Below, in pieces: positions 14,634-35,534 of a stretch of DNA of 42,478 bases; the stretch's first letter is position 1; each line of letters opens with the position of its first letter. Both the position numbers and the translations under genes were made by a program. The notes under the pieces were generated by a model that was not told the DNA's origin, did not search any database, and saw only the letters and a program-made list of their open reading frames with translations. This DNA comes from an uncultured archaeon (GTDB lineage Archaea > Iainarchaeota > Iainarchaeia > Iainarchaeales > JAAZKV01): the NCBI GenBank assembly GCA_964402905.1, contig CAYODU010000002.1, positions 1 to 42,478 of the forward strand. The letters are read 5' to 3'.

Positions 14634-15149
14634 ATGACAAAAAAAGTGTTTGTTTTAATAACTCTTGTTGTTCTTGCGTTATTTGTACTTTCTTTTGGTT
14701 GCACTACAAGTAATTTGGGTTCGGTTAGTTCACAGGATTTATCTTTATTACAGGAAAAATATGGTGTTAAAGATAATTTTTCTCCGAATTTGGGCGTAAT
14801 GAATAACTATGTAAGCGAGCTTTCAGTACTCAGAGCAAGAAGTTCTCTTGGGATAACAAATGTTCTTGAAGCTGAACTTAATTCCGCACAAGCTTTTTAT
14901 TACTTTCAAAAAGCAATTAGCGAATCACAGCTAATAACCACCGAGAAAGATTTTTGTAGTTCAAAAGAATTTATTGATGTAAAAAATTATATTGAGTTAT
15001 CGCTAAATTATTCAAACAAAGCAGTTAATTTGATCTCTTCTTTTAATTTAGAAGAGCTTTCATTATTGCGAACAGATCAATTAGAAATTGTAAGCCAACT
15101 AAAAAGTGATGCGCTAAATATTCAGAGTGATTTGAAGAAACGCTGTTGA
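14634..15149 (+). CDS. Hypothetical secreted protein / putative lipoprotein
   Basis: N-terminal signal-like MTKKVFVLITLVVLALFVLSFGC with a lipobox-like SFGC followed by TTSN. The remainder is hydrophilic. Confidence 0.55.
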   Translation: MTKKVFVLITLVVLALFVLSFGCTTSNLGSVSSQDLSLLQEKYGVKDNFSPNLGVMNNYVSELSVLRARSSLGITNVLEAELNSAQAFYYFQKAISESQLITTEKDFCSSKEFIDVKNYIELSLNYSNKAVNLISSFNLEELSLLRTDQLEIVSQLKSDALNIQSDLKKRC

Positions 15150-17134: not shown

Positions 17135-17827
17135 ATGAGTCTAATAGAATTAGCTTTGGTTTTAGCTTTCCTTTTTTTATTCTCTATTTTTTCTCATAAG
17201 AAAAAGCTTTTGAATTATGAAGGAATATTTATCGCAAATGCAGTTGGTTTGGCAGCAATAACTTATGGGCCAAATTCGCTACTTTGTTTTTTTGCAGTAG
17301 TAATGTTTTTTGTAATTGGTGAAATTGCAAGTACTTACCCCAAGAAAAAACACGAACAGAGAAATCTTTGGAATGTTGTTGGGAATTCCTTGCCAGCGCT
17401 TGCAATTCTTTCACTTGTGGTTATTTACCCAGAATACTCTTTTTATTTTCAGCTAGGCTTTTTTGGAGCTATTTCGGCTGCACTTGCTGATACACTTTCA
17501 TCAGAGATTGGTTATTATTCAAAGTCAAAGCCAGTTCTTATAACTACATTCAAAAAAGTTAATAGGGGAATTGATGGTGGAGTAACTCTGCTTGGAGAAT
17601 ATGCGGCACTTGCTGGTTCAATTGCAATTGCTCTGCTTTATTTTTTAGTTACACAAGAAATTTTTTCAGCAATAGTTATTATCTTGGCAGGGATTGTGGG
17701 AACAAATGTAGACTCATTATTTGGTGCATTATTTGAAACAAAAAAGATTTTAAATAACACCCACGTTAATCTTATTGGGAGCACTGCAGGAGCACTATTT
17801 GCTTTTCTGCTAAGCTTTTTTTTGTAA
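17135..17827 (+). CDS. DUF92 (TMEM19-like) integral membrane protein
   Basis: Polytopic membrane protein with the GAISAALADTLSSEIG motif (family ADT..SE.G) and GIDGGVTLLGEYAALAGS. Confidence 0.7.
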   Translation: MSLIELALVLAFLFLFSIFSHKKKLLNYEGIFIANAVGLAAITYGPNSLLCFFAVVMFFVIGEIASTYPKKKHEQRNLWNVVGNSLPALAILSLVVIYPEYSFYFQLGFFGAISAALADTLSSEIGYYSKSKPVLITTFKKVNRGIDGGVTLLGEYAALAGSIAIALLYFLVTQEIFSAIVIILAGIVGTNVDSLFGALFETKKILNNTHVNLIGSTAGALFAFLLSFFL

Positions 17828-17848
17828 GTTAATTATTAATGTGGTTAG

Positions 17849-18367
17849 ATGGCACTTGAAATAATATATTTTATTGAACTAATAGTTGCGTATGTAGTAC
17901 CACTTTATTTTGCAAACGCAGCCCCGATAATATTTCATGGAAAAAAACCTGTTGATTTTGGAAAAAAAATTGGTAATAAAAGAATCCTTGGTGATGGAAA
18001 AACAATTCTTGGGGCACTCTTTGGAATAGTAGTTGGTTCTTTCTGTGGAATTTTGATTTATTTAATTTTCCCTGAAATACAGATAATTTCATCCAATTAT
18101 ATTTTACTCGCATTTCTTTTATCTGCCGGAGCAATACTCGGTGATATCGTAAAAAGTTTTTTTAAGCGTCGCGTAGGCATTAAAAGCGGGGAAAAATGGT
18201 TTTTAGTTGACCAACTTGATTTTATTATTGGTGGGCTTGTTTTGAGTTCTTTTTTTCGCTTGCCCGAGATAGAATTAATTGTGTTTTTGTTTGTTGTAAC
18301 AGTTTTTGTTCACACTGCAACAAATATTGCTGCTTTCAAATTAAAACTAAAAAAGGTCCCTTGGTGA
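17849..18367 (+). CDS. carS: CDP-archaeol synthase (CDP-2,3-bis-O-geranylgeranyl-sn-glycerol synthase)
   Basis: 172-aa membrane protein with YFANAAPIIF..KPVDFGK....RILGDGKT.LG and the C-terminal DQLDF motif typical of the DUF46/CarS family. Confidence 0.8.
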   Translation: MALEIIYFIELIVAYVVPLYFANAAPIIFHGKKPVDFGKKIGNKRILGDGKTILGALFGIVVGSFCGILIYLIFPEIQIISSNYILLAFLLSAGAILGDIVKSFFKRRVGIKSGEKWFLVDQLDFIIGGLVLSSFFRLPEIELIVFLFVVTVFVHTATNIAAFKLKLKKVPW

Positions 18368-18371
18368 AAAA

Positions 18372-18866
18372 TTGAAAAGAAAAAAGAATTCTTTTGATAA
18401 AAAGATTTTTGTATTTTTAATAAAGTTTTTCTTGATATTTTTTATTCTTAATACAATAATATCTTTTTTGGATTTTCAATGGTTGAATAATTTTGTTGCA
18501 GTGGTGGTTGCCACAATATCCTTTTCTACTAGTATTTCAAGCATTGTTTTTGTGGGGCAACAACAATTCATTATAACGAATTATTGCCTTGGTTTTGTTA
18601 GTATTGCAATGTTAGCTGCGCTAATATTTTCTCTTTCAAAACCGGATATAAGAAAAAAATTTGTTGTTTTTGTTTTAGGGGCAATCATTTTATTTATTTT
18701 GAACATATTTAGAATTGTTATGGTGTTGTTTTCTGCTAAAATTGGTTTTGATGCACAACTAATGCACACCCTTTCATGGTTTTTGATGAGTGCATTTGTT
18801 CTTTTGATATGGTTTTATCTAATGCTTTTCTTTTCAAAGAAAAAAATGTTATCAGATCTACTGTAA
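18372..18866 (+). CDS. Exosortase/archaeosortase family protein, short form
   Basis: 164-aa polytopic protein with ordered Cys (ITNYCLGF, C72), Arg (LNIFRIVM, R114) and His (LMHTLSWF, H132), each inside a successive hydrophobic segment. This is the family's signature arrangement. TTG start lies 5 nt after GGTGA, which overlaps the carS stop. Confidence 0.6.
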   Translation: MKRKKNSFDKKIFVFLIKFFLIFFILNTIISFLDFQWLNNFVAVVVATISFSTSISSIVFVGQQQFIITNYCLGFVSIAMLAALIFSLSKPDIRKKFVVFVLGAIILFILNIFRIVMVLFSAKIGFDAQLMHTLSWFLMSAFVLLIWFYLMLFFSKKKMLSDLL

Positions 18867-18936: not shown

Positions 18937-20553
18937 CTATTCTTTTTCTTCAATGTTACCAACAATCTTTTCAATTATCTTTGTGAATGCTGGTCTAGTA
19001 ATGAATACTCCGATTAATGCTCCTACAATAGCAACTACTGCAAAGCCGTATAACTTATCTAAACCTGGATAATTTCTTGAGAATAAAACAATCGGGCCCA
19101 TTACACCAATTATTGTGAAAGCCGAAGTCATTATTATGAATAAAGCCGCTTTTGCTCTCTTAATAAGTGATTCGGTAGCCCCACCTTTTCTTCCAATTAT
19201 CTCATCAGTAATAACTATTTCTGAATCAACTCCGGTTCCTATTGCTGCGATTAATCCTGCGAAAGCAGCTAAGTCAAGTGGTCTTTGTGTTAGAGCAATG
19301 AAACCAAGGTTAAGAAGAACTTCGCTTGTACCAATAATAAATATTGGAATGATTAGTTTTATCATTCTGTATCTTATTGCTATTACTGCTCCAACTGTTA
19401 AAAAAGCAATTATTCCCATTAGGAATACATTTGTAAGGAATGATTCTCCGAGAGAAGGGGAGATAGTTTCTTTTGAAATACTTTTAACAGGGGTTGGTAA
19501 AGAACCGGATTCAAGCAAAACAGTTAGTTCTTCTAAATCGCTTCTTGCTTCTTCAACAGTTTCTCTTGTACCGCTTATTCTTAAATTACTAAAGCTTTTT
19601 GCTTGTGAAATATCTGTCACATCTTCATTTGTTATTCCTTCTGTTAAGCCAATTACTTGTTCTGCGTGCAACGCTCCCCAAATCCAAGCGATTCCATCTT
19701 CTTCTTTTTGCACAGTCACTTCAAATCCCGCATTTTTTAGTTCTTGAACAGCACCTGCTCCAAGATCAGGAGAAACAATAGCGTTCTTTGTCTGACCAAT
19801 TGCACTCGCTAAAACATTTGAATCAAAACCAGCTGGGTCATAAACTACCACATTTAGTTTTGAATCTTCTATTAATCCATCAATATCTGTTTGCTCTGGA
19901 ATTCCGCTTAATCTGTTTCCTATGTAAAGCAAACTCTGATCATTATCGTATTGGTCTTGTGTTAACACGATAAGTGCATCAGGTTTATCTAAAAAGAAAA
20001 TTGTTTTTTCGCATTCATAAACTGGTTTTCCATCAGTACCAAAAGAAACTGCGCTACATTGGTGGAAAGTTTTTTCTTTGAAACTTAGTGTTGCATTTTC
20101 ATTTAAAACAAATGGTAAACTCCACTCAAATAAAACTCCAGTTTTGAATACTCCGTAAGAATTATCTCCGCGCAAAACTTTTTTTATTTCATCTCCGGTG
20201 AAAACAATTTCTCCGTTTAAATTCGCTTCAAATTTTCCTTGTTGTCTTATACGCGATTCTATTTTTTCAAGTTCTATTGGATCTGTTTCCGAAACCTGTA
20301 TCATAATATATTGTGATCCAACTGGAGAAACAATTACATCTTTTAATCCTGAAGGATCTATCCTTTGTGAAATTATACTTGCTATTCTTGATATTTCATC
20401 ACCCGAAACAGGATTTTGTAATTCAACCTGATAAAGAGTTCCTCCTTCAAAATCAAGTCCTAGTTTTACTCCCATATTCATTATTATTCCAACAGCAATC
20501 AAAATTGCTCCGACAAGAAGCAGTATTCTCCAATACTTAATCAAAGGATTCAC
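18937..20553 (-). CDS. secD: Protein-export membrane protein SecD
   Basis: N-terminal TM helix then GLDFEGG, a large extracytoplasmic domain and a C-terminal 5-TM bundle. GTG start overlaps the secF stop (GTGA) and follows AAGGTGAG. Confidence 0.85.
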   Translation of the reverse strand: MNPLIKYWRILLLVGAILIAVGIIMNMGVKLGLDFEGGTLYQVELQNPVSGDEISRIASIISQRIDPSGLKDVIVSPVGSQYIMIQVSETDPIELEKIESRIRQQGKFEANLNGEIVFTGDEIKKVLRGDNSYGVFKTGVLFEWSLPFVLNENATLSFKEKTFHQCSAVSFGTDGKPVYECEKTIFFLDKPDALIVLTQDQYDNDQSLLYIGNRLSGIPEQTDIDGLIEDSKLNVVVYDPAGFDSNVLASAIGQTKNAIVSPDLGAGAVQELKNAGFEVTVQKEEDGIAWIWGALHAEQVIGLTEGITNEDVTDISQAKSFSNLRISGTRETVEEARSDLEELTVLLESGSLPTPVKSISKETISPSLGESFLTNVFLMGIIAFLTVGAVIAIRYRMIKLIIPIFIIGTSEVLLNLGFIALTQRPLDLAAFAGLIAAIGTGVDSEIVITDEIIGRKGGATESLIKRAKAALFIIMTSAFTIIGVMGPIVLFSRNYPGLDKLYGFAVVAIVGALIGVFITRPAFTKIIEKIVGNIEEKE

Positions 20554-21590
20554 TTTCTCACCTTTTCAACGAACCAAAGTAGTATTGGTGCATTCATTAA
20601 CCAAGTAGAAATAACGTCTCCAATTAAACCAAACAATAATATTGCAGCGATTTGGTAAATTACTTCGATTTGGTAAAAATAAGAAACGATTATCATTGCA
20701 ACAAGTGCTGCCAGAGTAGTTCCTGTCATTGTTAAACCAGTTTTCATTGAAGTAGTTGCCTTTTCTCCCGGAGAACCTGTTTTTCCTTTTAACATTCTTG
20801 ATGTTAGCATTATGTCTGTATCAACAGAGTAACCCACAAGCATTAGTAGTGCTGGAATTGTTGTAAGTGACATGGGTATTCCTAGTAAAGCCATTCCTGC
20901 TAATCCGGCAAGAACATCAAAAATCATTGCTTGAATTATTGCTATTGATGGAACAACTTGTCTGAATGCAAGGAAAATTATTACTACAATTACTATCATT
21001 CCTATTATTGAAATAAATATTGCTGATTGCATTGATGCTGCTCCAAGGGTAGGAGAAATTTCTCTTTTTTGGAATTCTACATCACTTCCTAAACCAAGTT
21101 TTTCAACTAAAACATTTTGTAATTTAACAGAAAAATCTTCTTTGTGTTTTGCCAGAGCATCTTGTGCCGCTAATAATGCTAATTTTGAATTACTGAATTC
21201 TTGTGCACTTCCGCCAAGTTTTTCTATAACTTGGTTTGAATAAGAAATTGAATCAATATCATTATCTAAATTCAATTCAGCTAAATTCAAAAGAGCCTCT
21301 GCTTCGCTTACAATAGGGTCTTTACTGTACTGTATGTATGCTCCGTATCCAGTTGGCGAAGCAATAGTTGATACTTTTAGATCAACAAGAGTGAATTCTT
21401 GTCCCAAAGATGAAACAATTTGTTGTTCTGACAGGGGGCTAGAAGAACGGACAATTAAAACGTTTCCTCCAGTTAAGTCAATTCCGGGGGTCAAACCTGG
21501 GAAAATTAAAATAAGTATTAGCATTGGTATGAGCAAAACGATTGGAACAATCATGTATTTTTTGTAGCGTTTGCCAAAATAGTCGTCCAT
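20550..21590 (-). CDS. secF: Protein-export membrane protein SecF
   Basis: TM1 then GIDLTGG, a periplasmic-type domain and a C-terminal TM bundle. Immediately upstream of secD, the archaeal secFD order. ATG 21590 (MDDYFGKRY) is preferred to the TTG at 21611. Confidence 0.8.
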   Translation of the reverse strand: MDDYFGKRYKKYMIVPIVLLIPMLILILIFPGLTPGIDLTGGNVLIVRSSSPLSEQQIVSSLGQEFTLVDLKVSTIASPTGYGAYIQYSKDPIVSEAEALLNLAELNLDNDIDSISYSNQVIEKLGGSAQEFSNSKLALLAAQDALAKHKEDFSVKLQNVLVEKLGLGSDVEFQKREISPTLGAASMQSAIFISIIGMIVIVVIIFLAFRQVVPSIAIIQAMIFDVLAGLAGMALLGIPMSLTTIPALLMLVGYSVDTDIMLTSRMLKGKTGSPGEKATTSMKTGLTMTGTTLAALVAMIIVSYFYQIEVIYQIAAILLFGLIGDVISTWLMNAPILLWFVEKVRK

Positions 21591-21761
21591 TAGAATCCGT
21601 CCGTGCCTCAATAGTTTAATAGTATAGATTAAAAACTTGCTAAGCCTTAAATATGTTATGGAAACGGCAAAAAAAGGGCGGTTTTGTATAAAAAGCGCAG
21701 TATTTTTTTGATTTTGTTTTCCAATTAAAATATAGTTTTTTTGTTTTTGGATGTATCTTGT

Positions 21762-23174: not shown

Positions 23175-24704
23175 TTGGAAAAAGCTCAAGAAATTTTGTC
23201 CTATGCTGAAACGAAAAATATTGTTATATCAAAGAACGCTGTTTCTATTCTTGAAAAAGAAAATGAGTGGAAAAGATTTTTGGATGAACTAACCGAAGAA
23301 GGAAAATTTTTTATTGATCCAAAAACATTGGAAACAAAGCTCAGACACACAAAGCTATCTCATACAATTGAAGAAGTCGAAATAAGAAAAACTCGTTTTA
23401 ATGCACAAGCAAAGGAAAGAGCACCTAATTTTCGTGTAATGGAAGAATATGATGTTACAGGAAAAAGCATTTCTGAGGGAAAAGTCGGTGACTTTCTAAA
23501 GCTTTTTAGAAGCAAATTTAAGTTGTTATCGGATATGCTAAGAGAAAGGCACAATCTTGCTCCTGTTGAATTAAGCCACTTAAAATCAGTTCCAAAAAAT
23601 CAAAATGTTGATGTAATTGGAATAGTAAATAAGAAGTGGACAACAAAAAATAATAATATTGCTTATGAAATTGAGGATCTTGAAACAAAATGCATAGTAC
23701 TTGTAATGGAAAAAGAGAAGGAGCTTATACGCAAAGCAGAGAGAATACTTGAGGATAATGTTGTGGGAATCAAAGGAACAAAAATTGGAGATGGCTTTAT
23801 TATAATAAAAGAAATTTATTGGCCGGACATGCCGATTGCATCGCCTAAATTACTAAGTGAAGAAGTTTATTCAGGTGGAACAAGTGATTTTCATGTGGGC
23901 AGTAACTTTTTCTTGGAGGACGCAGTAAAAAAGTGGATTGATTATTTAAATGGAAAAGGCTTAGAAGGAAAAAGACTTGAGAAAATAGGTAAGCTTCAAT
24001 ACTTATTTGTAAACGGAGACAATGTTGCTGGCATAGGAATTTATCCGGGACAGATTGATGATTTAGTAATAAAAGATATTTACAAGCAATATGAAAAGTT
24101 TGAGGAAATAATGTTGCAGATTCCGGAGTACATACAAGTTTTTATTTGTCCTGGACAGCACGATGCTGTTAGGCGAGCTGAACCACAGCCAGCTATTCCA
24201 GAAGAGTTTGTTCCAAGATTAAGCAAACTAAGAAACTTTCATTTTATTTCTTCTCCATCATGGGTAGAAACAGAGGGAATCAAAAATCTTGTTTATCATG
24301 GTCCAAGTGTACATGATTTGATAAGTAGTGTTAGTTTTCTTGATATGAATAAACCCCAAGATGGAATGGTTGAACTATTAAAGAAAAGAGATTTGATGCC
24401 AAAGTATGGTGGAAAAAATCCTTATGTTCCCGAAGGAAGAGATTATATGGTAATAAAAGAAATTCCTGATTTAGTGTGGATGGGGGATATGCACCATAAT
24501 GGTTATGCAACTTATCGCGGAGCAACAGTAATTAATGGAGGCTGTTGGGAAGCTCAAACAGATTTTCAAAAAAAGATAGGGCATCATCCAACACCCGGTG
24601 TTTTTCCTATGATTAATCTTAAGAATCGGCAGATATCCGAAGTTTATTTTATGCGCGATAATATTGAAAGAGATGTATCAACAGAAGAGGGGGTTATTCA
24701 ATGA
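23175..24704 (+). CDS. polB: DNA polymerase II (PolD) small subunit DP1 (3'-5' exonuclease)
   Basis: Calcineurin-like phosphoesterase motifs DFHVGS, NGDNVAG, PGQHD and GDMHHNG, with an OB-fold-like middle part. No in-frame ATG lies near the N-terminus. TTG 23175 (MEKAQEILSYAE) with GGTG 8 nt upstream is my best start; the track start 23088 would overlap UPF0147. Confidence 0.88.
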   Translation: MEKAQEILSYAETKNIVISKNAVSILEKENEWKRFLDELTEEGKFFIDPKTLETKLRHTKLSHTIEEVEIRKTRFNAQAKERAPNFRVMEEYDVTGKSISEGKVGDFLKLFRSKFKLLSDMLRERHNLAPVELSHLKSVPKNQNVDVIGIVNKKWTTKNNNIAYEIEDLETKCIVLVMEKEKELIRKAERILEDNVVGIKGTKIGDGFIIIKEIYWPDMPIASPKLLSEEVYSGGTSDFHVGSNFFLEDAVKKWIDYLNGKGLEGKRLEKIGKLQYLFVNGDNVAGIGIYPGQIDDLVIKDIYKQYEKFEEIMLQIPEYIQVFICPGQHDAVRRAEPQPAIPEEFVPRLSKLRNFHFISSPSWVETEGIKNLVYHGPSVHDLISSVSFLDMNKPQDGMVELLKKRDLMPKYGGKNPYVPEGRDYMVIKEIPDLVWMGDMHHNGYATYRGATVINGGCWEAQTDFQKKIGHHPTPGVFPMINLKNRQISEVYFMRDNIERDVSTEEGVIQ

Positions 24705-27700
24705 CCGAAATAAAAAAAGATTTTGATGTGAAAGCCCCTTTACGCATAAAAAAGTATTTCAAGAATATGCGAGAAAAAATAAATGTTGAATACGATATTG
24801 CAAAAAAAGCTAAGGCAAAAGGATTTGATGTAAGCACTGAAATAGAAATGACTCCGGCAGTGGATTTAGCTGATAGAGTAGAAACACTTATTGGGCTTGA
24901 GGGACTTGCTAAGCGATACAGAGAAGTACTTCCCACATGTGGAGATGATAGAAGAAAAACATATTTCCAATTGTTTAGAGAAATAATGGAACAAAAGTGG
25001 TGCAAAATACCCGATCCACAAAAAAGACTTGAAATAGGAATTAAGTCTTGCTTGTTAATTGAAACAGAAGGAGTTGTTGTTGCTCCGCTTGATGGATTGC
25101 CGCGGGTTGAAATAAATAAGAATCCAGATGGCAGCAAATATGTTGATATTTTTTTTGCAGGGCCAATACGTGCTGCTGGTGGTTCTTCAACAGTAATACC
25201 GTTGATTTTAGGAGACTATGGAAGAACTCTTCTTGGTCTTGACAAATACAAACCCACACAAGATGAAATTGAAAGATATGTTGAAGAAATAGATATTTAT
25301 CAAACAGAAATAATTTCTAGACAATACAAATTACCTGCTGAAGAGATAAGAATAATTGTAAAAAATTGTCCAGTTTGTGTTAATGGTGTTCCTACTGAAG
25401 AAGAAGAAGTATCGGTTCATAGAGATCTTGCAAGAATCCCCACTAATCGTGTGCGCGGTGGAATGGGTTTAGTAATCGCTGAAGGGCTTGCACTAAAAGC
25501 ACTTTGGGTAATGAAAACTGCTAAACAACACGGACTTAATTGGGATTTCCTTGAAAAAATAGTTAAAGTTGAGAAAACACAAACCACAATTGAAATCAAA
25601 CCAAATAACAAAATTCTTGATGGTTTAGCCGCAGGAAGACCAATACTTGGTTATCCGGGGCGATGGGGTGGCTTTCGTATACGATATGGTAGAGGAAGAA
25701 ATACCGGTATAATGGCCAAGGCGATCAATCCCGCATCAATGATAGTTTTTGATGAGTTTATTGCTGTGGGTACACACGGAAAAATAGAGCGTCCTGGGAA
25801 AGCAACACAATTTTTTCCATGTGATATTATAGATGGGCCCATAGTACTGCTAAAAGACGGCGCAGTAAGAAGATTGAACAATACTATTGATGCTGAGAAT
25901 GTAAAATCAAGAATAGACAAAATTCTTTATATTGGAGATTTGCTGACAACCTATGGTGATTATAGAAAAAGTGCTCACCCACTGGTGCCAAGTGGATATG
26001 TTGAAGAATGGTGGAAACTTGAGCTAAAAAAACTTTCTAGAGAAAAAAATCTTTCTGAAAAATTTAATTTGGAAAAATTTTTTAATAATCCTTTTGATGT
26101 TACTGAAGAAGAAGCAATTTTTCTTTCGCGTGAAACCAAAATTTCGCTTCATCCAAAATATATTCATTACTATAAAGCGCTAAATGGAAAAGAAATAATG
26201 GAACTTCATAATTTCTTTTTGAGTTCAGAAATAATAGAAGAGAAAAGTGAAAACGAAAATGGGAATAGTGTAAAAACAAAAATTCTTCTAGAAAATAAAG
26301 AAAAAGAAAAAAAGTTGCTTGAGAAAATCGGTTTGCCTCATTACATTGAAAAAGAAAAAATAGTGATTGATGAATTTGCAAAAACAATAATTGAAACTTT
26401 TTCCATAAAAGAAAAAAAAGAAAGTAGTTCAGAGGATGTTCTTGAATATTTGTCACAGATAAGTGGTCTTGTAATAAGAGACAAATCAGGCACATTTATT
26501 GGCGGAAGAATGGGTCGCCCAGAACAAGCAAAGCCAAGACAAATGAAAGGAAATCCTCATGTATTATTTCCAATCGGTTTGAAAGGTGGGAGCACAAGAA
26601 GCATAAACAAAGCCATTGATATGAATAATAATGAGTTTGGGGGAGTCAAAGTTGAAACAGCAAAATATTATTGTGTAAAATGCAAAAAAGAAATTTTTTC
26701 ACCTTATTGCGCCGAATGTGGGGAAAGAACAGTCCGAATGAATTATTGTAAAGCATGTAAAAAAAGTGTTATTGGTTCACAATGTAAGCGGTGCGGGGCA
26801 ACATCAGTTCTTTCCGGAGAAGAAGAAGTGCCTCTGCGCGAAATGTTTGAAAAAGCAAAAAACAATCTAAGAGTAAGCATTCCTGATATAGTTAAAGGGG
26901 TAAAAGGAATGATTTCAGATTCAAAGGAATGTGAGCCGATTGAAAAAGGTATTTTGAGGGCACGACAAAATATACATATCTTTCGTGACGGAACATCTCG
27001 TTTTGAACTTTTGAATGCAACAATAACTCACTTCAAACCCAGAGAAATTAATCTTAGTGTTGAAAAAGTAAAAGAACTTGGATACACAAAAGATTATTTT
27101 GGAGAAGAGATAACTGATGACGAACAACTAATAGAAATTTTTCCACAAGATATTATTGTAAATGAAACTTGTGGGGATTGGTTACTAAGTGTTTCAAAAT
27201 TTATTGATGAATTGCTTGAAAAATTTTACAAAGAAAAGACACATTATAATGCTAAGACAAAAGAAGATTTAATTGGTGCGCTTGTTTTGGGGCTTGCTCC
27301 ACACACATCAGCAGCAGTTGCTTCAAGAATACTTGGTTATACAAAGGCAAGACTTGGTTTTGGGCACCCGTATTTTGTTTGTGCTAAAAGAAGAAATGTT
27401 GATGGAGACCAGGATTCGATAATGCTTTTGATGGACGGTTTATTGAATTTTTCTAAAAAATATTTGGCAAATAGAAACGGTGGCAAAATGGACGCGCCAA
27501 TTGTATTTTCAATAATAATAAATCCGACTGAAGTTGATGCCGAAGTATATGAAATGGAAACATGTGCTGAGTATCCACTTGATTTCTATGAAAAATCATC
27601 AAAGATTTGCGAGCCTTTCCTTGATAATATCAGCATAGTAAAAGATAATCTTGGAAAAGAAAGCCAGTACACAGAAATCGGTTTTACTCATAGCACTGAT

Positions 27701-27934
27701 ACTTTTGATGAAGGGCCAAAGACTTCGCGTTATATACAGTTAAAAACAATGGAAGAAAAAATTCAGCGCCAAAATGCTTTACAGAAAAAAATAGTTGCTG
27801 TTGATACAAAAGATTGTTTGGAGAGAGTGATGGGTTCGCACTTTTTGCCAGATATAATAGGAAATGCAAGAGCATTTTCGCGTCAGACATTTAGGTGCAC
27901 CAATTGTAATGAAAAATATAAAGAATTCCTCTAA
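24701..27934 (+). CDS. polC: DNA polymerase II (PolD) large subunit DP2, main frame ending prematurely at a frameshift
   Basis: ATGA overlap with DP1. N-terminus KKYFKNMREKINVEYDIAKKAKAKGFD, clustered Zn-finger Cys motifs (CVKCKKE..CAECGE..CKACKK..CKRCG) and the catalytic region VDGDQDS. The frame stops right after the first CxxC of the terminal zinc finger (FRCTNCNEKYKEFL*). Confidence 0.93.
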   Translation: MTEIKKDFDVKAPLRIKKYFKNMREKINVEYDIAKKAKAKGFDVSTEIEMTPAVDLADRVETLIGLEGLAKRYREVLPTCGDDRRKTYFQLFREIMEQKWCKIPDPQKRLEIGIKSCLLIETEGVVVAPLDGLPRVEINKNPDGSKYVDIFFAGPIRAAGGSSTVIPLILGDYGRTLLGLDKYKPTQDEIERYVEEIDIYQTEIISRQYKLPAEEIRIIVKNCPVCVNGVPTEEEEVSVHRDLARIPTNRVRGGMGLVIAEGLALKALWVMKTAKQHGLNWDFLEKIVKVEKTQTTIEIKPNNKILDGLAAGRPILGYPGRWGGFRIRYGRGRNTGIMAKAINPASMIVFDEFIAVGTHGKIERPGKATQFFPCDIIDGPIVLLKDGAVRRLNNTIDAENVKSRIDKILYIGDLLTTYGDYRKSAHPLVPSGYVEEWWKLELKKLSREKNLSEKFNLEKFFNNPFDVTEEEAIFLSRETKISLHPKYIHYYKALNGKEIMELHNFFLSSEIIEEKSENENGNSVKTKILLENKEKEKKLLEKIGLPHYIEKEKIVIDEFAKTIIETFSIKEKKESSSEDVLEYLSQISGLVIRDKSGTFIGGRMGRPEQAKPRQMKGNPHVLFPIGLKGGSTRSINKAIDMNNNEFGGVKVETAKYYCVKCKKEIFSPYCAECGERTVRMNYCKACKKSVIGSQCKRCGATSVLSGEEEVPLREMFEKAKNNLRVSIPDIVKGVKGMISDSKECEPIEKGILRARQNIHIFRDGTSRFELLNATITHFKPREINLSVEKVKELGYTKDYFGEEITDDEQLIEIFPQDIIVNETCGDWLLSVSKFIDELLEKFYKEKTHYNAKTKEDLIGALVLGLAPHTSAAVASRILGYTKARLGFGHPYFVCAKRRNVDGDQDSIMLLMDGLLNFSKKYLANRNGGKMDAPIVFSIIINPTEVDAEVYEMETCAEYPLDFYEKSSKICEPFLDNISIVKDNLGKESQYTEIGFTHSTDTFDEGPKTSRYIQLKTMEEKIQRQNALQKKIVAVDTKDCLERVMGSHFLPDIIGNARAFSRQTFRCTNCNEKYKEFL

Positions 27935-28146
27935 GTGGTCGCTGTTATAAATGTGGAAAAGAAACAATAATACTTACAATACATCAGGGATCTGTTAGAA
28001 AATATCTCAAGATTGCACAGAATATGGCTCGCCAAGAACACTTGTCAGATTATCTAATACAAAGACTTGATATGATTGAAAAAGAAATTGATTCAGTATT
28101 CAAAAATGAGAAAGTTGATCAAAAATCATTGTTTGAATTTGTTTAA
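27922..28146 (+). CDS. polC: C-terminal segment of PolD DP2 in the -1 frame (continuation of 24701..27934)
   Basis: The -1 frame reads RIPLSGRCYKCGKETIILTIHQGSVRKYLKIAQNM...LFEFV*. This is the expected continuation (..CN.KY.R.PL.G.C..CG...LT...G.V.KYL) of the DP2 C-terminus and has no start codon of its own. Confidence 0.85.
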   Translation, partial: RIPLSGRCYKCGKETIILTIHQGSVRKYLKIAQNMARQEHLSDYLIQRLDMIEKEIDSVFKNEKVDQKSLFEFV

Positions 28147-29893: not shown

Positions 29894-29902
29894 GTGGTAT
29901 TT

Positions 29903-30259
29903 GTGGGATTTTTTAACAAAGTAATGGTTAAAGAAGAATCAGTTGATTTAGAAGACTTTTTGAATAACTTGGATGAAGTTCAAGAAGAAACTTATGATAA
30001 CGCTGATGCCTTCGTTAAACCAATGGATTTAGTTGTTGATGCAGATGTATCAGCAATAATGAACGAAGTAAAACAAGGAAATATTGTATTAGTTAATATT
30101 GCCGATTTAGCAAAAAGAAATGCGATGAAACTAAAGGAATTAATCGGAAGCGTAAAAGGCGAAGTTAAAGCTATTGATGGTGATATTGCAAGAATATCTC
30201 AAGGAAGAGTACTTGTTACTCCATCAAAAGTAAAAATAATTAAAAGAAAAGGACAGTGA
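29903..30259 (+). CDS. sepF: Cell division protein SepF (DUF552)
   Basis: MGFFNKVM amphipathic N-terminus, acidic linker (VDLEDFL), then GNIVLVNIADL...IDGDIARISQGRVLVTPSKVKI, co-linear with archaeal SepF as I recall it. GTG 29903 follows GGGGTGGT. The track start GTG 29894 is an alternative. Confidence 0.8.
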   Translation: MGFFNKVMVKEESVDLEDFLNNLDEVQEETYDNADAFVKPMDLVVDADVSAIMNEVKQGNIVLVNIADLAKRNAMKLKELIGSVKGEVKAIDGDIARISQGRVLVTPSKVKIIKRKGQ

Positions 30260-31062
30260 AGGAAATGTTTTTAGGCAATCCGTCATTGCCTTTAGAGTTC
30301 CCTGTTAATGAAGCGCTTAGCAAAGTTAATGGAATTCTCACAAAAAAAAATTGGCACAATTTCGAAGTAGGGAACCTAAAAATGGTTCTTGTGCCATACT
30401 TTTTTTTTCATTATCACTACTATATTGAAAGCGAAAACAAAGAAGAATCAAAAAAAGTTATTGAAAAATCTTTTGATGGTTATTTGGCGCTTAATGGCGT
30501 TACTTTGGAAATGGAAAAAAATTCTGCAGATCTAATAAAAAAATATTTGAAAAAGCTTTCCAATGAAGCACCTAGTATGCCCTTTGAAGAAAAAGAAACT
30601 CTTCTTGAAAAAAAAGAGTGTGAAAAAGTAATTCGTTTTAAATCAGCAGAGCACTTTAAAATACCAAAAGAAAATATTCTCATTTCAAGTATTAAAAAAG
30701 TTTTTTTCCCGCTGTATGAAACATTCATTGAAGTAAATAAACAAAATTTTGAAATTGTTATTAATGCTACGAACGGAGAAGTCCTAGGTATTGGTGCTGT
30801 TCCTGAAAGAGAAAAAGGTTTCTTGGAATTAACAAAAGAAACTCTTACGGAATTAAGCGAACCCAAAGCATGGCTTACATATTCAAAGGGACTTTTCACA
30901 GAAACAGGAAAAGCAATCGGGGGCAAAGCAAAAAATGCTACACAAATTATTCCAAAGATTTCAGAAAAAAAAAGTTTATCATCAATTTTCTCAAGCAATT
31001 GGTTTCTTTTTTTGATTATTATTCTTGCATTGTTTTTAATTTACCTTGCGCTTTTTGTATAA
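30256..31062 (+). CDS. Hypothetical C-terminally anchored membrane protein translationally coupled to sepF
   Basis: GTG 30256 overlaps the sepF stop (GTGA); ATG 30265 is an alternative. Single C-terminal TM helix (WFLFLIIILALFLIYLALFV). Two internal modules share the pattern hK.VhhPhY...N(A/L).NG. Confidence 0.6.
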   Translation: MKEMFLGNPSLPLEFPVNEALSKVNGILTKKNWHNFEVGNLKMVLVPYFFFHYHYYIESENKEESKKVIEKSFDGYLALNGVTLEMEKNSADLIKKYLKKLSNEAPSMPFEEKETLLEKKECEKVIRFKSAEHFKIPKENILISSIKKVFFPLYETFIEVNKQNFEIVINATNGEVLGIGAVPEREKGFLELTKETLTELSEPKAWLTYSKGLFTETGKAIGGKAKNATQIIPKISEKKSLSSIFSSNWFLFLIIILALFLIYLALFV

Positions 31063-31141: not shown

Positions 31142-33799
31142 TTATCCCGTAACATATGGTCGTGAAGTGCACAAAGAAGAGCTTGCATCGGTAGCAACAA
31201 CACTTTCCTCTGTTTGTTTTATTGAATCAAGTATTTCGCTTGAATTCCAGAAAAGAGTCCAGTTTGATTCTGCTAAAGTATTGCTTTTGTTTACACAAAC
31301 ACTTTCTTCTCTTATTGCATTAAACAAATCGCTTAAAGTTAATACTCTAAAAGGCGTTTTGCTTGAATCAATTTGAACAAAGCAATTGTTTTGATTTGGT
31401 TCGCAACTGTCATCTAGGCTATATACTCCAAAAGAAGAATTTATCCTTATATAATTTGCATTTGATTGCATTTCACTTGTTTGGGGTACATACAAAACAC
31501 TTTCAAGGTAAAGCGAATTATTTGGTTTTGTTGCTCCCAAAAAGCTTAGATCAAATTCTCCTGCTGAAATGTTTGTATCAGGTTCTCTGTAAGGTAACAT
31601 TTCATCTGAAACAGAAATGTTTTTACAGCCTTCTCCAAGAGTACTTCCAACACCTGTCCATAAAGTAAATGCATCATAATAATTCACTTCTCCGCCAGTG
31701 TAGTAAATACTAAAGTTGGTGTTAGCGTAACCATTAATGTCAACAACTTTTGCAAAGAGTGGTGAAGCAAAACCAGTGTACATTTTAACATCTGATAAAT
31801 CGGTTTCTTCGTCATTTTTATTAAACTCCATCAAAGTTCCTCGTTTTAACATATTTGCTGAGTTAAGTGAAGAAAGAATTTTTGGGATATCGTCTTCAAA
31901 CAAATCATTTGGGCTGTCATAGAAAAACCAATCAAATGAATCGGGTTGCACTAGTGAAGGAGTGAGATCAATTGTAAGTTGTACAGACGGATTTAATTCT
32001 CCGTTTATGAAAAATCCAATTTCGCCACCTTTAATAGTTATTATTACATGGTACTTGCCTGCGCTTATTGGGCTATCAACGCTAAAAGGATATCCTCCAT
32101 AAGTAAACTCTGCGTTAGTTAAGAGCTCTTTTAGGAGAGAAATATTTGCTACAGCGTTTTGTCCTTCAAAGATACTATAATTTTCTAGTCCATTCTGTGA
32201 AAGGAAAAGACTATACCGTTGATCATCACTAAAACGATCTACTGAACTTTGTATATCTTGTACAGAAAAATTCTGTGATTTTATGTAAGCATCAAACTGT
32301 GTTGTCTCAGCCTCTTTTTCCCTTAGAGTTTGCAGTTCTCCTGCATCATTATTTCCTTGTAGTTCAATGTTGATTTCATTGCGTATATCCATAGTTTTTC
32401 CTATTTTTCTTGCTAATTCAACCAAGAACTCGTTTTGTGAACAATAAACCCAGTCATCATTATCTGCGCCATCGATTGCTAATGAGTCGTCAAGTGTTTT
32501 TTCATCACACTCATCAATAGAAACAATTTCGTTGTTGCTATTTGTGCTTCCTCCAAAGCCGATATTAATTCTTGGAACATAAGATTCGCCAGTCTCTCCA
32601 ATCATTCCATTTTCTCCGATGCACCCAGTGAAATCATAATTTGATTTTGTTCCGATTTGGAATTTTTGTTTGTCAAGTAAACCAAATTTATAAGAGATAG
32701 GTTTTGATGAAGTATTGTTTAAATAATACTGGTTGCATGCGGGTGTAATAAGTGTTGGTACGGTATAGTTAACATCAAGCCAAACAAAAACACTATTTAT
32801 TGGCAAATGGCTTTTGTCTACTGTAAGATTTCCACGTATAACCATTTCTCCATTAAACTTGTCTATACCCCAGCCAACATAATTTTTATCAATACTTCCG
32901 GTAATCCCGTTCCCAGTCCACCTTAATTCATAGTTATCCAGATTAATATCGAGAGGAGATCTATTAGCTAAAGTAAAAACAATTTGTTTATTGTAAACAC
33001 CAAACTTTTCTGTAAAACCCGTATTCAAATCATTTGTTCCAGAAACAATTAAAGAAGGAAAACCAACATATATGTTGTTAACAAATTGTGAAGAGTACTC
33101 GCTTGGCATAGTATTAGCGATTGGAGAATTGGCTATTTTTAATGCATAAGTGTGTCCGCCCGCAGTTGCTAAATTATAACTGATTGTGTTTTGATCACCT
33201 ATCCCTTCTAGTTCTGTGCTTTTTACAGTGCATCCTCCGGATGAAGTGCATTTGTAAAGTCCTGATGATTGTGGTGTCCCAAAGGTAGCACTACTATTTG
33301 TTGTTGTTGGATTATTAAGAGCAATGTTTTCATCTAAAAATATACCTCCAAAAGCCATTTCTTTTTGTGTTACTCCATTGTCAAATACAAAGTTGTATTT
33401 TCCAAAGCCACTTGCTGTTAGTGTGGCCCCCGGAACCCCAAAAAAAGGATAATTGATATTATTGACTTGTATTTCCGAACCTACAACGCAACCCGAAACA
33501 GAAATTGTTGGGTCAGCAGTTTCCAAAGAAGAGCTGTTTACGCAATTAGCTACTCCACATGTGGTCCCACCTCCGCCACCCCCTCCTCCGCAGCATATAG
33601 CTCCATTTCCTGAGGGACATCTTGTTCCACAGTGGCCCCAATCATCACAATTTATTGTGCCCCTACTGCAGGCTCTTCCATTGTTATAATTAAAATTGCC
33701 CCAAGTATTTCCGTATTTTGTCCCAAGTGCAGTGACTTCGCACACAAATAAACTAAAAACAAAAATAAAAATTAAAAACAAAATAAATCCTTTATTCAT
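31142..33799 (-). CDS. Large secreted surface protein (885 aa), signal peptide, Cys-rich/Gly8 N-terminal module, no anchor
   Basis: GGGTGA Shine-Dalgarno. ATGA overlap with the upstream gene. Signal-like MNKGFILFLIFIFVFSLFVCEVTALG. CSRGTINCDDWGHCGTRCPSGNGAICCGGGGGGGGTTCGVANC. Many N-x-S/T sequons. No C-terminal hydrophobic segment. Confidence 0.75.
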   Translation of the reverse strand: MNKGFILFLIFIFVFSLFVCEVTALGTKYGNTWGNFNYNNGRACSRGTINCDDWGHCGTRCPSGNGAICCGGGGGGGGTTCGVANCVNSSSLETADPTISVSGCVVGSEIQVNNINYPFFGVPGATLTASGFGKYNFVFDNGVTQKEMAFGGIFLDENIALNNPTTTNSSATFGTPQSSGLYKCTSSGGCTVKSTELEGIGDQNTISYNLATAGGHTYALKIANSPIANTMPSEYSSQFVNNIYVGFPSLIVSGTNDLNTGFTEKFGVYNKQIVFTLANRSPLDINLDNYELRWTGNGITGSIDKNYVGWGIDKFNGEMVIRGNLTVDKSHLPINSVFVWLDVNYTVPTLITPACNQYYLNNTSSKPISYKFGLLDKQKFQIGTKSNYDFTGCIGENGMIGETGESYVPRINIGFGGSTNSNNEIVSIDECDEKTLDDSLAIDGADNDDWVYCSQNEFLVELARKIGKTMDIRNEINIELQGNNDAGELQTLREKEAETTQFDAYIKSQNFSVQDIQSSVDRFSDDQRYSLFLSQNGLENYSIFEGQNAVANISLLKELLTNAEFTYGGYPFSVDSPISAGKYHVIITIKGGEIGFFINGELNPSVQLTIDLTPSLVQPDSFDWFFYDSPNDLFEDDIPKILSSLNSANMLKRGTLMEFNKNDEETDLSDVKMYTGFASPLFAKVVDINGYANTNFSIYYTGGEVNYYDAFTLWTGVGSTLGEGCKNISVSDEMLPYREPDTNISAGEFDLSFLGATKPNNSLYLESVLYVPQTSEMQSNANYIRINSSFGVYSLDDSCEPNQNNCFVQIDSSKTPFRVLTLSDLFNAIREESVCVNKSNTLAESNWTLFWNSSEILDSIKQTEESVVATDASSSLCTSRPYVTG

Positions 33800-35475
33800 T
33801 TTTTCACCCTTTTATAAGTTGAAAGAATAATTAGTATAGCAACTATTGCAATAAGTATTGCTGTTACCACAATAAATGGGAGTATTTTTTCGCTTTCATT
33901 TCCGCTACTTAAAGGAATACATTCTGCTCGACAACAGTCTCCTTGCGCTGTTTTGTATGATCCGCCATTGCAGACAAATCCACTTTCACAAACAACACCA
34001 CCACAAAAAGCATCAAGGATATTACCGTTTTCATCAACTGCAATATCAGAAACAGAATTGCTTAAGTCAGTTGAGCTATTAAGTTTTATGTCAAACACCT
34101 GTTGTTTTTTTACATCAAGATCATCAACAACTAAAGTTAGATTTTTTTCCTCAACAGAATAATTTTTTGTTATGGATGTGAGAACACTGTTCACAGTGTC
34201 TTCATTTAAAGTGTTTTCATTTTCCAAAAGAATTATTTTTGCATTTATAAGTGCTTTTGTTAATTTTACTTCAAGAACAGAATTTTGTTTATTATAACCC
34301 CACTTTACGTTTACAGGGAGAGCTGTCTTTACATCATATGCATCGGTAAGAGATTTCAAATCAACATCAAAACATTCTCTTTCATATTCCTTTTTGTCTT
34401 TTTTTGTTACAGTACAGAGTCTGTCAAATGATTTTACAGACAAAGAAAATTCTTTGCTTAGGACTTCTCCAGAATCAATTATTGGAATATTGGCATACTC
34501 CTCTTCTTTTTTATTTCCTGCTTCAAATACTTCAATTCCCAAAGAAAAATTGTCAAATGCTATTTCGCTGGAACCATCAGAAAGCCCAGAAATTACAGCT
34601 GTTACTTTGTACTCTTTTTTTTCAATTCCGCTGATAAAAACTTTTCTTATTTTTGCAGTGGGGCCGGAAACAATTAATCTATTCTTGTAAATAGATTCAC
34701 TTTTACCTGATGCATTTTTCAAAACAATATTTATTTCGTAAACTGAAGAAATAATTGGGGCAGTCAATGAAACATCAATTGTTTTTTCTTCTCCGGCAGA
34801 AATTGAGGCAAGCGAAAAATTTTCTTCTGTTGGATTTGCACAAAAAGCAGTTGCCCAATCACAAAAAGAAATACTTAATACTAAATTCTTTTGCTGTACT
34901 TTTGAATCATTTCTTACAACAACTTTTCCACTGAATTCTTCTCCAGAGTTAACTGTAAAACCGGTTTGTCCAGAAACATTTTCTTTTCCAAAAACAGTTT
35001 TTGTTCTGTCAATGATAACTCTTTTATCCTCTGTTCCTTTAACAGAAAAGTTTTCTGAGAGTGGGTTGTAGAGAATATTGCTTGCCCCTATTAATTTTGA
35101 TTTTACTGCCCAAGCATAAATATCAAGGCGATAGTTTCCTGCCTTTTGTGGTGGCAGATTAAAATCAATTCTTTTTGTAGTGTTAGGCAGAGTCCAGATA
35201 TTTGAAATAATTGATTCGCTTACAATATTGCCACTGCTAAATTGTGAAGGGTAACTATAATCGCCTTCTGTTATCTGTAAAACAATTTTTCCATCGAGAA
35301 GTGGGTAGGCTTCAAGATTAGTAAGATAAAGGCTTCCCGTAATACTTTGGTTCGTATCAAACACTTCTTTACTCATGTAAATTTGTCCAAAACCATTCCA
35401 ATTTAATTCGTCTGAAGGCAGGGCAAATGCTGCTCCGAAAAGCAAAATCAAAAACAAAATACAAAATCCTTTCAT
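33796..35475 (-). CDS. Surface protein (559 aa) with signal peptide, beta-sandwich-like repeats, C-terminal Cys knot and TM/basic tail
   Basis: ATG 35475 follows GTTGAT plus 4 nt. Signal peptide MKGFCILFLILLFGAAFA/LP. C-terminus CGGVVCESGFVCNGGSYKTAQGDCCRAECIP-LSSGNESEKILPF-IVVTAILIAIVAILIILSTY-KRVKK. Confidence 0.75.
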   Translation of the reverse strand: MKGFCILFLILLFGAAFALPSDELNWNGFGQIYMSKEVFDTNQSITGSLYLTNLEAYPLLDGKIVLQITEGDYSYPSQFSSGNIVSESIISNIWTLPNTTKRIDFNLPPQKAGNYRLDIYAWAVKSKLIGASNILYNPLSENFSVKGTEDKRVIIDRTKTVFGKENVSGQTGFTVNSGEEFSGKVVVRNDSKVQQKNLVLSISFCDWATAFCANPTEENFSLASISAGEEKTIDVSLTAPIISSVYEINIVLKNASGKSESIYKNRLIVSGPTAKIRKVFISGIEKKEYKVTAVISGLSDGSSEIAFDNFSLGIEVFEAGNKKEEEYANIPIIDSGEVLSKEFSLSVKSFDRLCTVTKKDKKEYERECFDVDLKSLTDAYDVKTALPVNVKWGYNKQNSVLEVKLTKALINAKIILLENENTLNEDTVNSVLTSITKNYSVEEKNLTLVVDDLDVKKQQVFDIKLNSSTDLSNSVSDIAVDENGNILDAFCGGVVCESGFVCNGGSYKTAQGDCCRAECIPLSSGNESEKILPFIVVTAILIAIVAILIILSTYKRVKK

Positions 35476-35534
35476 CAAAATCAACTCATAAATATAATTT
35501 TTCTATTATTTAATCCTGCCCGCAAATGCATTTT

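Follow-up and report, generated by a model that had tools for sequence, protein, structure and literature searches.

The closest described counterpart of the gene treated here encodes archaeosortase A (ArtA), and to our knowledge it is the only enzyme, in Haloferax, for which lipid anchoring by an archaeosortase has been examined by experiment. PssA uses cytidine diphosphate (CDP)-archaeol, which is the product of the CDP-archaeol synthase CarS. In Haloferax volcanii, ArtA-dependent cleavage and lipidation require both PssA and PssD, and the genes artA, pssA and pssD are syntenic in Methanosarcina (PMC7157517). The subject of this work is a gene of an uncultured archaeon of the Iainarchaeota (assembly GCA_964402905.1), located on a stretch of 42,478 nucleotides (nt) of contig CAYODU010000002.1, which is referred to in its whole length as the window. 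The gene encodes a protein of 164 amino acids (aa) of the exosortase/archaeosortase family, termed the mini-sortase below, and lies directly behind carS in an arrangement that recurs in related archaea; this conserved pairing suggests a tie between the anchoring of surface proteins and the supply of lipids.

The mini-sortase shares with ArtA (TIGR04125) the TIGR04178 core, the Cys-Arg-His triad and the character of a polytopic membrane protein, and its gene is likewise linked to a gene of polar-lipid synthesis; by analogy, removal of a transmembrane (TM) helix and attachment of a lipid anchor may be presumed for it as well. It differs from ArtA in being about half the size (164 aa versus roughly 300 aa) and in belonging to a DPANN archaeon instead of a euryarchaeote. 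The linkage to a polar-lipid biosynthesis gene known from artA-pssA-pssD is found again, with the difference that the partner here is carS, whose product acts one step before those of pssA and pssD. Nearer in size are ArtD, ArtE, pacearchaeosortase and exosortase X, whose models of 150-170 positions align with the mini-sortase over nearly its full length and score best among the named models, while the mini-sortase itself falls into a clade of its own, for which no curated model exists. No conserved carS linkage of ArtD, ArtE, pacearchaeosortase or exosortase X was found in the literature searched.

The mini-sortase gene and its product

An earlier interpretation made from the letters of the window alone (here the sequence-only reading) had described three tightly packed membrane-protein genes with spacers of 21 and 4 nt, and these were recovered at exactly the coordinates it had given, all on the plus strand. 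The first gene (17135..17827, +; ATG start) encodes a polytopic, TIGR00297-like membrane protein of 230 aa that belongs to the DUF92 family, and is followed by a spacer of 21 nt (17828..17848, +; GTTAATTATTAATGTGGTTAG, as read from the sequence). The second, carS (17849..18367, +), also starts with ATG and encodes the 172-aa CDP-archaeol synthase. Its stop region, CCTTGGTGAAAAATTG, visibly contains the Shine-Dalgarno-like GGTGA (18363..18367, +) that the sequence-only reading had pointed out, overlapping the TGA stop codon and lying 4 nt 5' of the TTG start of the mini-sortase gene, the spacer between the two genes being AAAA. The mini-sortase gene itself (18372..18866, +) encodes 164 aa with the candidate catalytic residues Cys72, Arg114 and His132. 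TTG is the sole start codon downstream of an in-frame stop, and the residues N6, F8, D9 and K10 right after it are kept in the two nearest homologues, which makes the start credible. Translational coupling of carS and the mini-sortase gene is predicted as probable, consistent with the overlap of GGTGA and the stop codon, and the two genes very probably form an operon.

The assignment of carS, as judged by sequence matching, is secure, since its product scores 182.2 bits against the NF003114 equivalog (cut-off 148) and 138.9 bits against PF01864, and since residues 9-172 match the crystal structure of CDP-archaeol synthase (PDB 5GUF, E = 3.6e-27). The protein encoded upstream scores 168.6 bits against PF01940 (cut-off 27.5) and 146.5 bits against TIGR00297, under the cut-off of 205.85, and is therefore a DUF92 member outside the curated TIGR00297 equivalog. 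Both family names proposed from the letters are borne out by these matches.

The 164-aa protein is almost certainly a member of the exosortase/archaeosortase family, in agreement with the archaeosortase-like identity proposed earlier. It exceeds the curated cut-off of the signature hidden Markov model TIGR04178 (36.5 bits, cut-off 23, E = 4.4e-9) and reaches only 17.2 bits against PF09721, under the gathering score of 25.7. When 1.84 billion cluster representatives were searched exhaustively with a profile, 238 relatives were returned at E <= 1e-3; a word-index search started from the single sortase sequence had yielded no more than 4 matches. Among the 150 representatives listed, the longest has 237 aa, and the full-length ones mostly have 150-210 aa. 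Conservation was read from an alignment of 107 of the 238 representatives, all of which match TIGR04178. Close homologues have already been annotated as "exosortase/archaeosortase family protein" by automated pipelines, so the family call is correct but not new, and what is uncurated is the clade.

The fit to the named archaeosortase models that the sequence-only reading had looked to did not materialise, no cut-off from ArtA to ArtH or of pacearchaeosortase being reached. The window mini-sortase scores 37.4 bits against ArtD (TIGR04175, cut-off 125), 29.8 against pacearchaeosortase (NF033505, cut-off 80), 28.0 against ArtE (TIGR04124, cut-off 95), 26.1 against exosortase X (NF046081, cut-off 170) and 6.8 against ArtH (cut-off 200), and the models of ArtA, ArtB, ArtC, ArtF and heimdallarchaeosortase give no match to it at E <= 10. 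Because it stays under every named cut-off, it is placed in a clade of mini-sortases of 150-210 aa that has not been curated. For the 107 homologues, the best E-values against named-subfamily models range from 1e-8 to 1e-17 (best 2.8e-17), with none near the cut-offs, and the ArtA model (TIGR04125) is matched by 41 of the 107 at E <= 0.001 (best E 1.2e-10).

The suspected catalytic triad of Cys, Arg and His has been defined in previous work (bioRxiv 10.1101/2023.06.07.544157). In the mini-sortase, the three residues stand at the positions that had been claimed for them, each inside or beside a hydrophobic segment by hydropathy, and their expected conservation in homologues was observed: Cys72 and Arg114, together with Asn111, are invariant in all 107 aligned homologues, and His132, like Gly74 and Trp136, is kept in 106. 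An AlphaFold2 model built from the 107-sequence alignment has a mean predicted local distance difference test score (pLDDT) of 96.1 and a predicted TM-score (pTM) of 0.89, with helices at 6-32, 36-49, 75-86, 93-123 and 128-155 and a beta-hairpin at 53-67. The protein thus modelled is polytopic, with some five membrane helices and one short beta-hairpin, and its triad residues lie within TM helices or adjoin them. From the helix boundaries of the model, and from the basic stretches (the N-terminal KRKK, residues 89-96 and the KKK tail), which would be cytoplasmic by the positive-inside rule, we infer that Cys72, Arg114 and His132 face the outer-leaflet side of the membrane. No solved relative was found by sequence search of the PDB or by Foldseek search of the PDB with the model (best E about 2).

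The carS-sortase pair in related archaea

Related loci were fetched as sets of seven GTDB species representatives (Iainarchaeum metagenome-assembled genomes) and 35 metagenome loci, mapped by tblastn, and the related-locus searches, run with alignments of 3 and 6 sequences, mostly recovered one family-level clade. In 46 of the loci fetched, and in one contig represented by its gene table only, the carS gene lies directly 5' of the sortase gene and is read from the same strand. It does so in every locus of the two mapped sets that has DNA upstream of the sortase, and also in distant lineages, and the expected recurrence of the carS-sortase synteny in other archaea is thereby confirmed. From the carS stop to the sortase start, 43 of the 46 loci show a distance of -14 to +7 nt, with outliers at -97, +17 and +84. 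Grouped by single linkage, the paired loci give 8 clusters for carS (60% identity) and 9 for the sortase (50% identity); their identity to the window genes goes down to 34-43% for carS and to 25-30% for the sortase, and the GC content of the sampled loci ranges from 26 to 52%. A model match, a conserved triad and adjacency in relatives, the absence of which the sequence-only reading had named as the ways in which it could fail, were all found.

The surroundings of the pair vary from lineage to lineage. In P0003 (sortase 40% identical, on a 42.7-kb contig), the gene order RIO-S15-S3Ae-DUF92-CarS-sortase-(223 aa)-SecD-SecF-NOG1-PolD is that of the window. In P0099 (locus L010, on a 452-kb contig) and P0155 (locus L017), the order is SecF>SecD>...<MJ0538...carS>sortase>, with unrelated genes after the sortase, no S3Ae, no DUF92 within 5 kb and a SecD only 27-28% identical to that of the window. 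In P0078 (locus L055, 52% GC), the order is <SppA carS>sortase> <SecD with a carS-sortase gap of 0 nt, and in P0086 (locus L053) the sortase is preceded by an open reading frame (ORF) ending in ...LGLKKVPW, the C-terminal signature of CarS. Loci L010 and L017 also carry, divergently upstream of carS, an MJ0538-family gene together with a Cys-rich (CxxC...CxxC) ORF of 53-54 aa (L010 3633-4378 and L017 3575-4358, both on the minus strand), which makes these a second pair of conserved neighbours.

The spacer between DUF92 and carS is less constant, measuring about -55 to 246 nt in relatives or containing an insertion of ~1-2 kb. A minus-strand S49 (SppA-like) gene of ~300 aa parts DUF92 from carS in L005 (3470-4372), L006 (3293-4225), L008 (3444-4412) and L009 (3516-4424), and an SppA-like gene on the minus strand (1-384) lies directly 5' of carS in L055, the S49 calls being made by eye. 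With the SppA-like gene and SecDF nearby, the neighbourhood resembles an envelope-biogenesis cluster, as far as gene content can tell. Since DUF92 is separated in the deeper lineages and absent within 5 kb in L010 and L017, the conserved core consists of carS and the sortase. The conserved unit is this pair within one clade, not the three-gene block and not a feature of the whole mini-sortase family. From the three-gene DUF92-carS-sortase module that had been put forward, the carS-sortase part recurs, and the DUF92 part, being cut off by an SppA-like gene or missing within 5 kb, does not.

The boundary of the pairing is seen in a sister clade of mini-sortases, some members of which are named Nanohaloarchaea at NCBI. 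Six loci of this clade (L011-L016, corresponding to P0165, P0170, P0172, P0174, P0199 and P0202) were studied, their sortases being retrieved by the mini-sortase profile at E-values of 1e-19 to 1e-27. These sortases fall into the same length class and bear the same conserved motifs as that of the window, whereas their context is Hef-(DUF460)-sortase, without carS. The upstream flank is the Hef helicase/nuclease, with or without DUF460, in 6/6 loci, and a 263-aa polytopic protein, a coiled-coil protein of ~350 aa and a T2SSE-type ATPase follow downstream in 5/6, L015 being arranged differently. The 263-aa protein has a GGAD motif and is possibly a prepilin-peptidase-like enzyme. Judged from its genes, this context would belong to a different, pilus-related kind of surface biogenesis.

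Proposed lipid anchoring and its alternatives

On balance, and by analogy with ArtA, the carS-linked mini-sortase is slightly more likely than not to anchor surface proteins, with the supply of lipid matched to the anchoring. The enzyme would act as a minimal intramembrane cysteine protease and putative transpeptidase on Sec-exported substrates, which would be recognised by a C-terminal short motif followed by a TM helix and a basic tail. Cleavage at the motif would proceed via a thioacyl intermediate on Cys72, with Arg114 and His132 completing the sortase-like triad, and the freed C-terminus would be joined to an archaeal phospholipid, at its amine head group, the phospholipid deriving from CDP-archaeol. 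Co-expression with carS would match the supply of this presumed lipid donor to the demand of anchoring. As ArtA needs PssA and PssD, and PssA uses CDP-archaeol, a carS-sortase operon would follow a like logic at the preceding step of the pathway. The stricter proposal, that the mini-sortase depends biochemically on a lipid derived from CDP-archaeol, is tentative and somewhat doubtful. The role of the DUF92 protein would more likely lie ahead of CarS, in the phosphorylation or salvage of isoprenoid lipids, and less likely in the sortase reaction.

The assignment of DUF92 to lipid metabolism starts from plant VTE6, the phytyl-phosphate kinase (a name confirmed in the literature), which phosphorylates an isoprenoid monophosphate, and which we take to be, together with human TMEM19, a member of DUF92 (PF01940). 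This membership points to an isoprenoid-lipid role tied to carS and not to the sortase, and by analogy with VTE6 the window protein is probably an enzyme of the isoprenoid-lipid phosphate kinase type. Given the same membership, DUF92 is not wholly the "still-uncharacterised" family that it had been called. No characterised archaeal DUF92 protein was found in the literature searched. The likeness to VTE6 and TMEM19 consists in the membership of DUF92, and the difference in the carS adjacency, which the window-type DUF92 shows only in closer relatives. DUF92 has 180 homologues at E <= 1e-10, and among the best 120 of the 180 the named organisms are all Diapherotrites, Iainarchaeum or unclassified archaeon, and no domain fusion occurs.

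The AlphaFold2 model of the DUF92 protein (pLDDT 91.3, 8 helices) finds CdsA (4Q2G, E = 0.12, probability 0.85) and CarS (5GUF, probability 0.89, with a target TM-score of 0.48) among its best fold matches in the PDB, neither match being significant. Local profile-profile alignment by hhalign pairs DUF92 146-203 (DGGvTlLG...vDSlFGA) with CarS 47-112 (GDGKTiLG...GDivKSF) at P = 0.0011 and a probability of 21%, the latter region of CarS also matching Pfam CTP_transf_1. These matches give only a hint of a distant kinship between DUF92 and the cytidine triphosphate (CTP)-dependent lipid enzymes; such kinship would suit a kinase of isoprenoid phosphates that works with CarS and not with the sortase. 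It is unlikely that carS and the mini-sortase, joined by DUF92 in the closer relatives, form a self-contained minimal DPANN module of lipid activation and lipid anchoring, in which DUF92, as a CTP-dependent kinase distantly akin to CarS and CdsA, would phosphorylate scavenged isoprenoid or archaeol lipid anew, CarS would turn this into CDP-archaeol, and the sortase would take CDP-archaeol or an immediate head-group derivative as the acceptor.

A C-terminal scan of all ORFs in the window yielded a sole candidate substrate of the sortase, a 562-aa protein (33796..35484, -) with a hydrophobic, signal-peptide-like N-terminus and the C-terminus ...EKILPF-IVVTAILIAIVAILIIL-STYKRVKK, composed of a short motif, a TM helix and a basic tail. 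Its role as a substrate, read from this tail, is speculative. One candidate tail, ...PVPDYS-LISILSLLAIVVFILV-RKK, was seen in a related locus. No dedicated neighbouring substrate was found in any of the loci, where the 223-, 245- and 166-aa ORFs and the MJ0538-like genes near the sortase lack a tripartite C-terminus. The 562-aa gene is one of three consecutive large genes on the minus strand (window 31142-40634; 1699, 562 and 885 aa) for which Pfam and NCBIfam give essentially no match. Of these, the genes of 562 and 885 aa share a 4-nt overlap, and both products begin with a signal peptide. The three genes are, by their sequence features, probably a surface-protein operon.

Several observations weigh against a coupling of protein anchoring to lipid supply. 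Across the window and the related loci no shared sorting motif was established, the two candidate tails (ILPF... and PVPDYS...) being different, and the NCBIfam CTERM sorting models match neither the candidate substrates nor the 50-aa tail, so that no PGF-CTERM substrate was detected. A carS-sortase fusion does not occur among the 150 listed representatives, no RNA runs among those searched hold the carS-sortase locus, and in locus L054 the 142 nt of sequence that precede the mini-sortase contain no carS. In the sister clade, the neighbours are Hef and genes of a pilus instead of carS. In closer relatives the whole ten-gene neighbourhood RIO-S15-S3Ae-DUF92-carS-sortase-SecDF-NOG1-PolD is kept, so part of the carS-sortase adjacency is simply inherited, and SecDF is nearby even in distant loci. 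The lipid-anchoring module suggested by the sequence-only reading remains a hypothesis, which the conserved pairing supports in part, and which falls short as regards a common C-terminal sorting motif and the extension to the sister clade.

The alternative that survives best accepts the sortase as real and explains its place behind carS as inherited order within an envelope-biogenesis string, S3Ae-DUF92-(SppA)-carS-sortase-SecDF, with genes that may be co-transcribed for convenience and no direct biochemical hand-off between CarS and the sortase. This is a serious possibility, though we hold it to be less probable than the anchoring role. The full ten-gene block is present in the 7 GTDB representatives and about 33 metagenome loci, which means that most instances are not independent, SecDF is no more than 3 kb away in L010 and L017 despite their rearrangement, the sister clade does without the carS link, and CarS is a general housekeeping enzyme that makes the precursor of all polar lipids. 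What inherited order explains less well is that the carS-sortase junction (mostly -14 to +7 nt) alone survives changes in DUF92, S3Ae, SppA and the orientation of SecDF, and that it does so across the low identities of both proteins (carS 34-43%, sortase 25-30%) and the wide GC range (26-52%) given above. Such tight gene coupling is usually kept by selection for co-expression. An independent precedent for archaeosortase genes standing with lipid head-group genes is also at hand in artA-pssA-pssD (PMC7157517).

An anchoring role is denied altogether by a second alternative, according to which the mini-sortase is a hydrolase only, shedding or maturing C-terminally anchored proteins or serving membrane-protein quality control together with SppA and SecDF, with no lipid involved. 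It could appeal to the literature, where one-step transpeptidation by ArtA is still unsettled (bioRxiv 10.1101/2023.06.07.544157), a point that also counts against the anchoring mechanism as proposed. About half of the length of ArtA is gone, so that lipid-binding elements located there may be missing, and an SppA-type signal peptide peptidase shares the neighbourhood in the deeper lineages. The Cys-Arg-His triad of transpeptidating sortases is nevertheless conserved, and the conserved pairing with a lipid-activating enzyme would be hard to explain, which leaves a pure hydrolase improbable. That the 164-aa ORF is nonfunctional, a chance hydrophobic ORF or the decayed remnant of an archaeosortase, as its TTG start, the 33% GC of the window, its shortness for the family and the 4 word-index matches might suggest, is hardly credible, and a chance ORF was rejected, in view of the 238 cluster representatives of similar length found by the exhaustive search, the invariant catalytic residues, the model with a pLDDT of 96, the conserved N-terminus right after the TTG and the orthologues recurring at the same position in the 46 fetched loci and the contig known from its gene table.

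Neighbouring genes and biological meaning

Convergent to the mini-sortase gene lie secD (18937-20553, -) and secF (20550-21611, -), genes of protein export whose region (18937..21611) gives matches to PF02355 and PF07549, and which are found no further than about 3 kb from carS-sortase in each of the long related loci. The archaeal housekeeping genes of the window comprise PolD, Cdc6/Orc1, SepF, S15, S3Ae, SecDF, NOG1, DnaK and PFOR, and the window sequence is present in lake-water metagenomes. Taken with the organism names of the DUF92 homologues and the Iainarchaeum genomes among the related loci, this places the host in the Iainarchaeota (Diapherotrites, DPANN). A viral contig scan found nothing, and a scan for promoters and terminators was uninformative, as expected for an archaeon from a sigma-70 model.

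Three further loci of the window were noted. A 171-aa protein without a family match (14634-15149, +) starts with MTKKVFVLITLVVLALFVLSFGCTTSN and has a signal peptide leading to the lipobox-like LSFGC, and is a candidate N-terminally lipidated archaeal lipoprotein by these features; lipoprotein enzymes of the AliA/AliB type have recently been described in archaea (PMC12462473). A term search of that paper gave no mention of a DUF that would link AliA or AliB to DUF92. SepF (121 aa) overlaps by 4 nt with the gene of a following 268-aa protein without a family match (together 29894-31062, +), which ends in a single hydrophobic helix without a basic tail (...NWFLFLIIILALFLIYLALFV) and, on the strength of this tail, may be a tail-anchored partner of SepF. 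The ORF of the PolD large subunit (DP2; 24701-27934) stops after ...FRCTNCNEKYKEFL, and an apparent C-terminal remainder (RIPLSGRCYKCGKETIILTIHQGSVRKYL...SLFEFV, then stop) continues in another frame to 28146 (window 27880-28146), so that the frame apparently shifts near 27920-27935, through an error of assembly or through a real disruption of the gene.

The enzyme family, the existence of small archaeosortases and the link between archaeosortase and lipid genes were already known, and the carS-sortase pairing will be no great surprise to a specialist. New, as far as the literature searches show, are the uncurated DPANN/Iainarchaeota clade of mini-sortases and its tight, conserved pairing with carS. 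For annotation, the clade is one without a curated subfamily model. A protein of 164 aa with the full triad is near a minimal catalytic core, which makes it attractive for structure determination and in vitro reconstitution. The pairing provides an independent comparative-genomic link from archaeosortases to the CDP-archaeol branch, which complements artA-pssA-pssD, and the mini-sortase/carS link bears on the question of the archaeosortase lipid donor; a hand-off from DUF92 through CarS to the sortase, if true, would identify this donor. The mini-sortases extend the archaeosortase system to DPANN archaea, whose surface biology and lipid acquisition are poorly understood.

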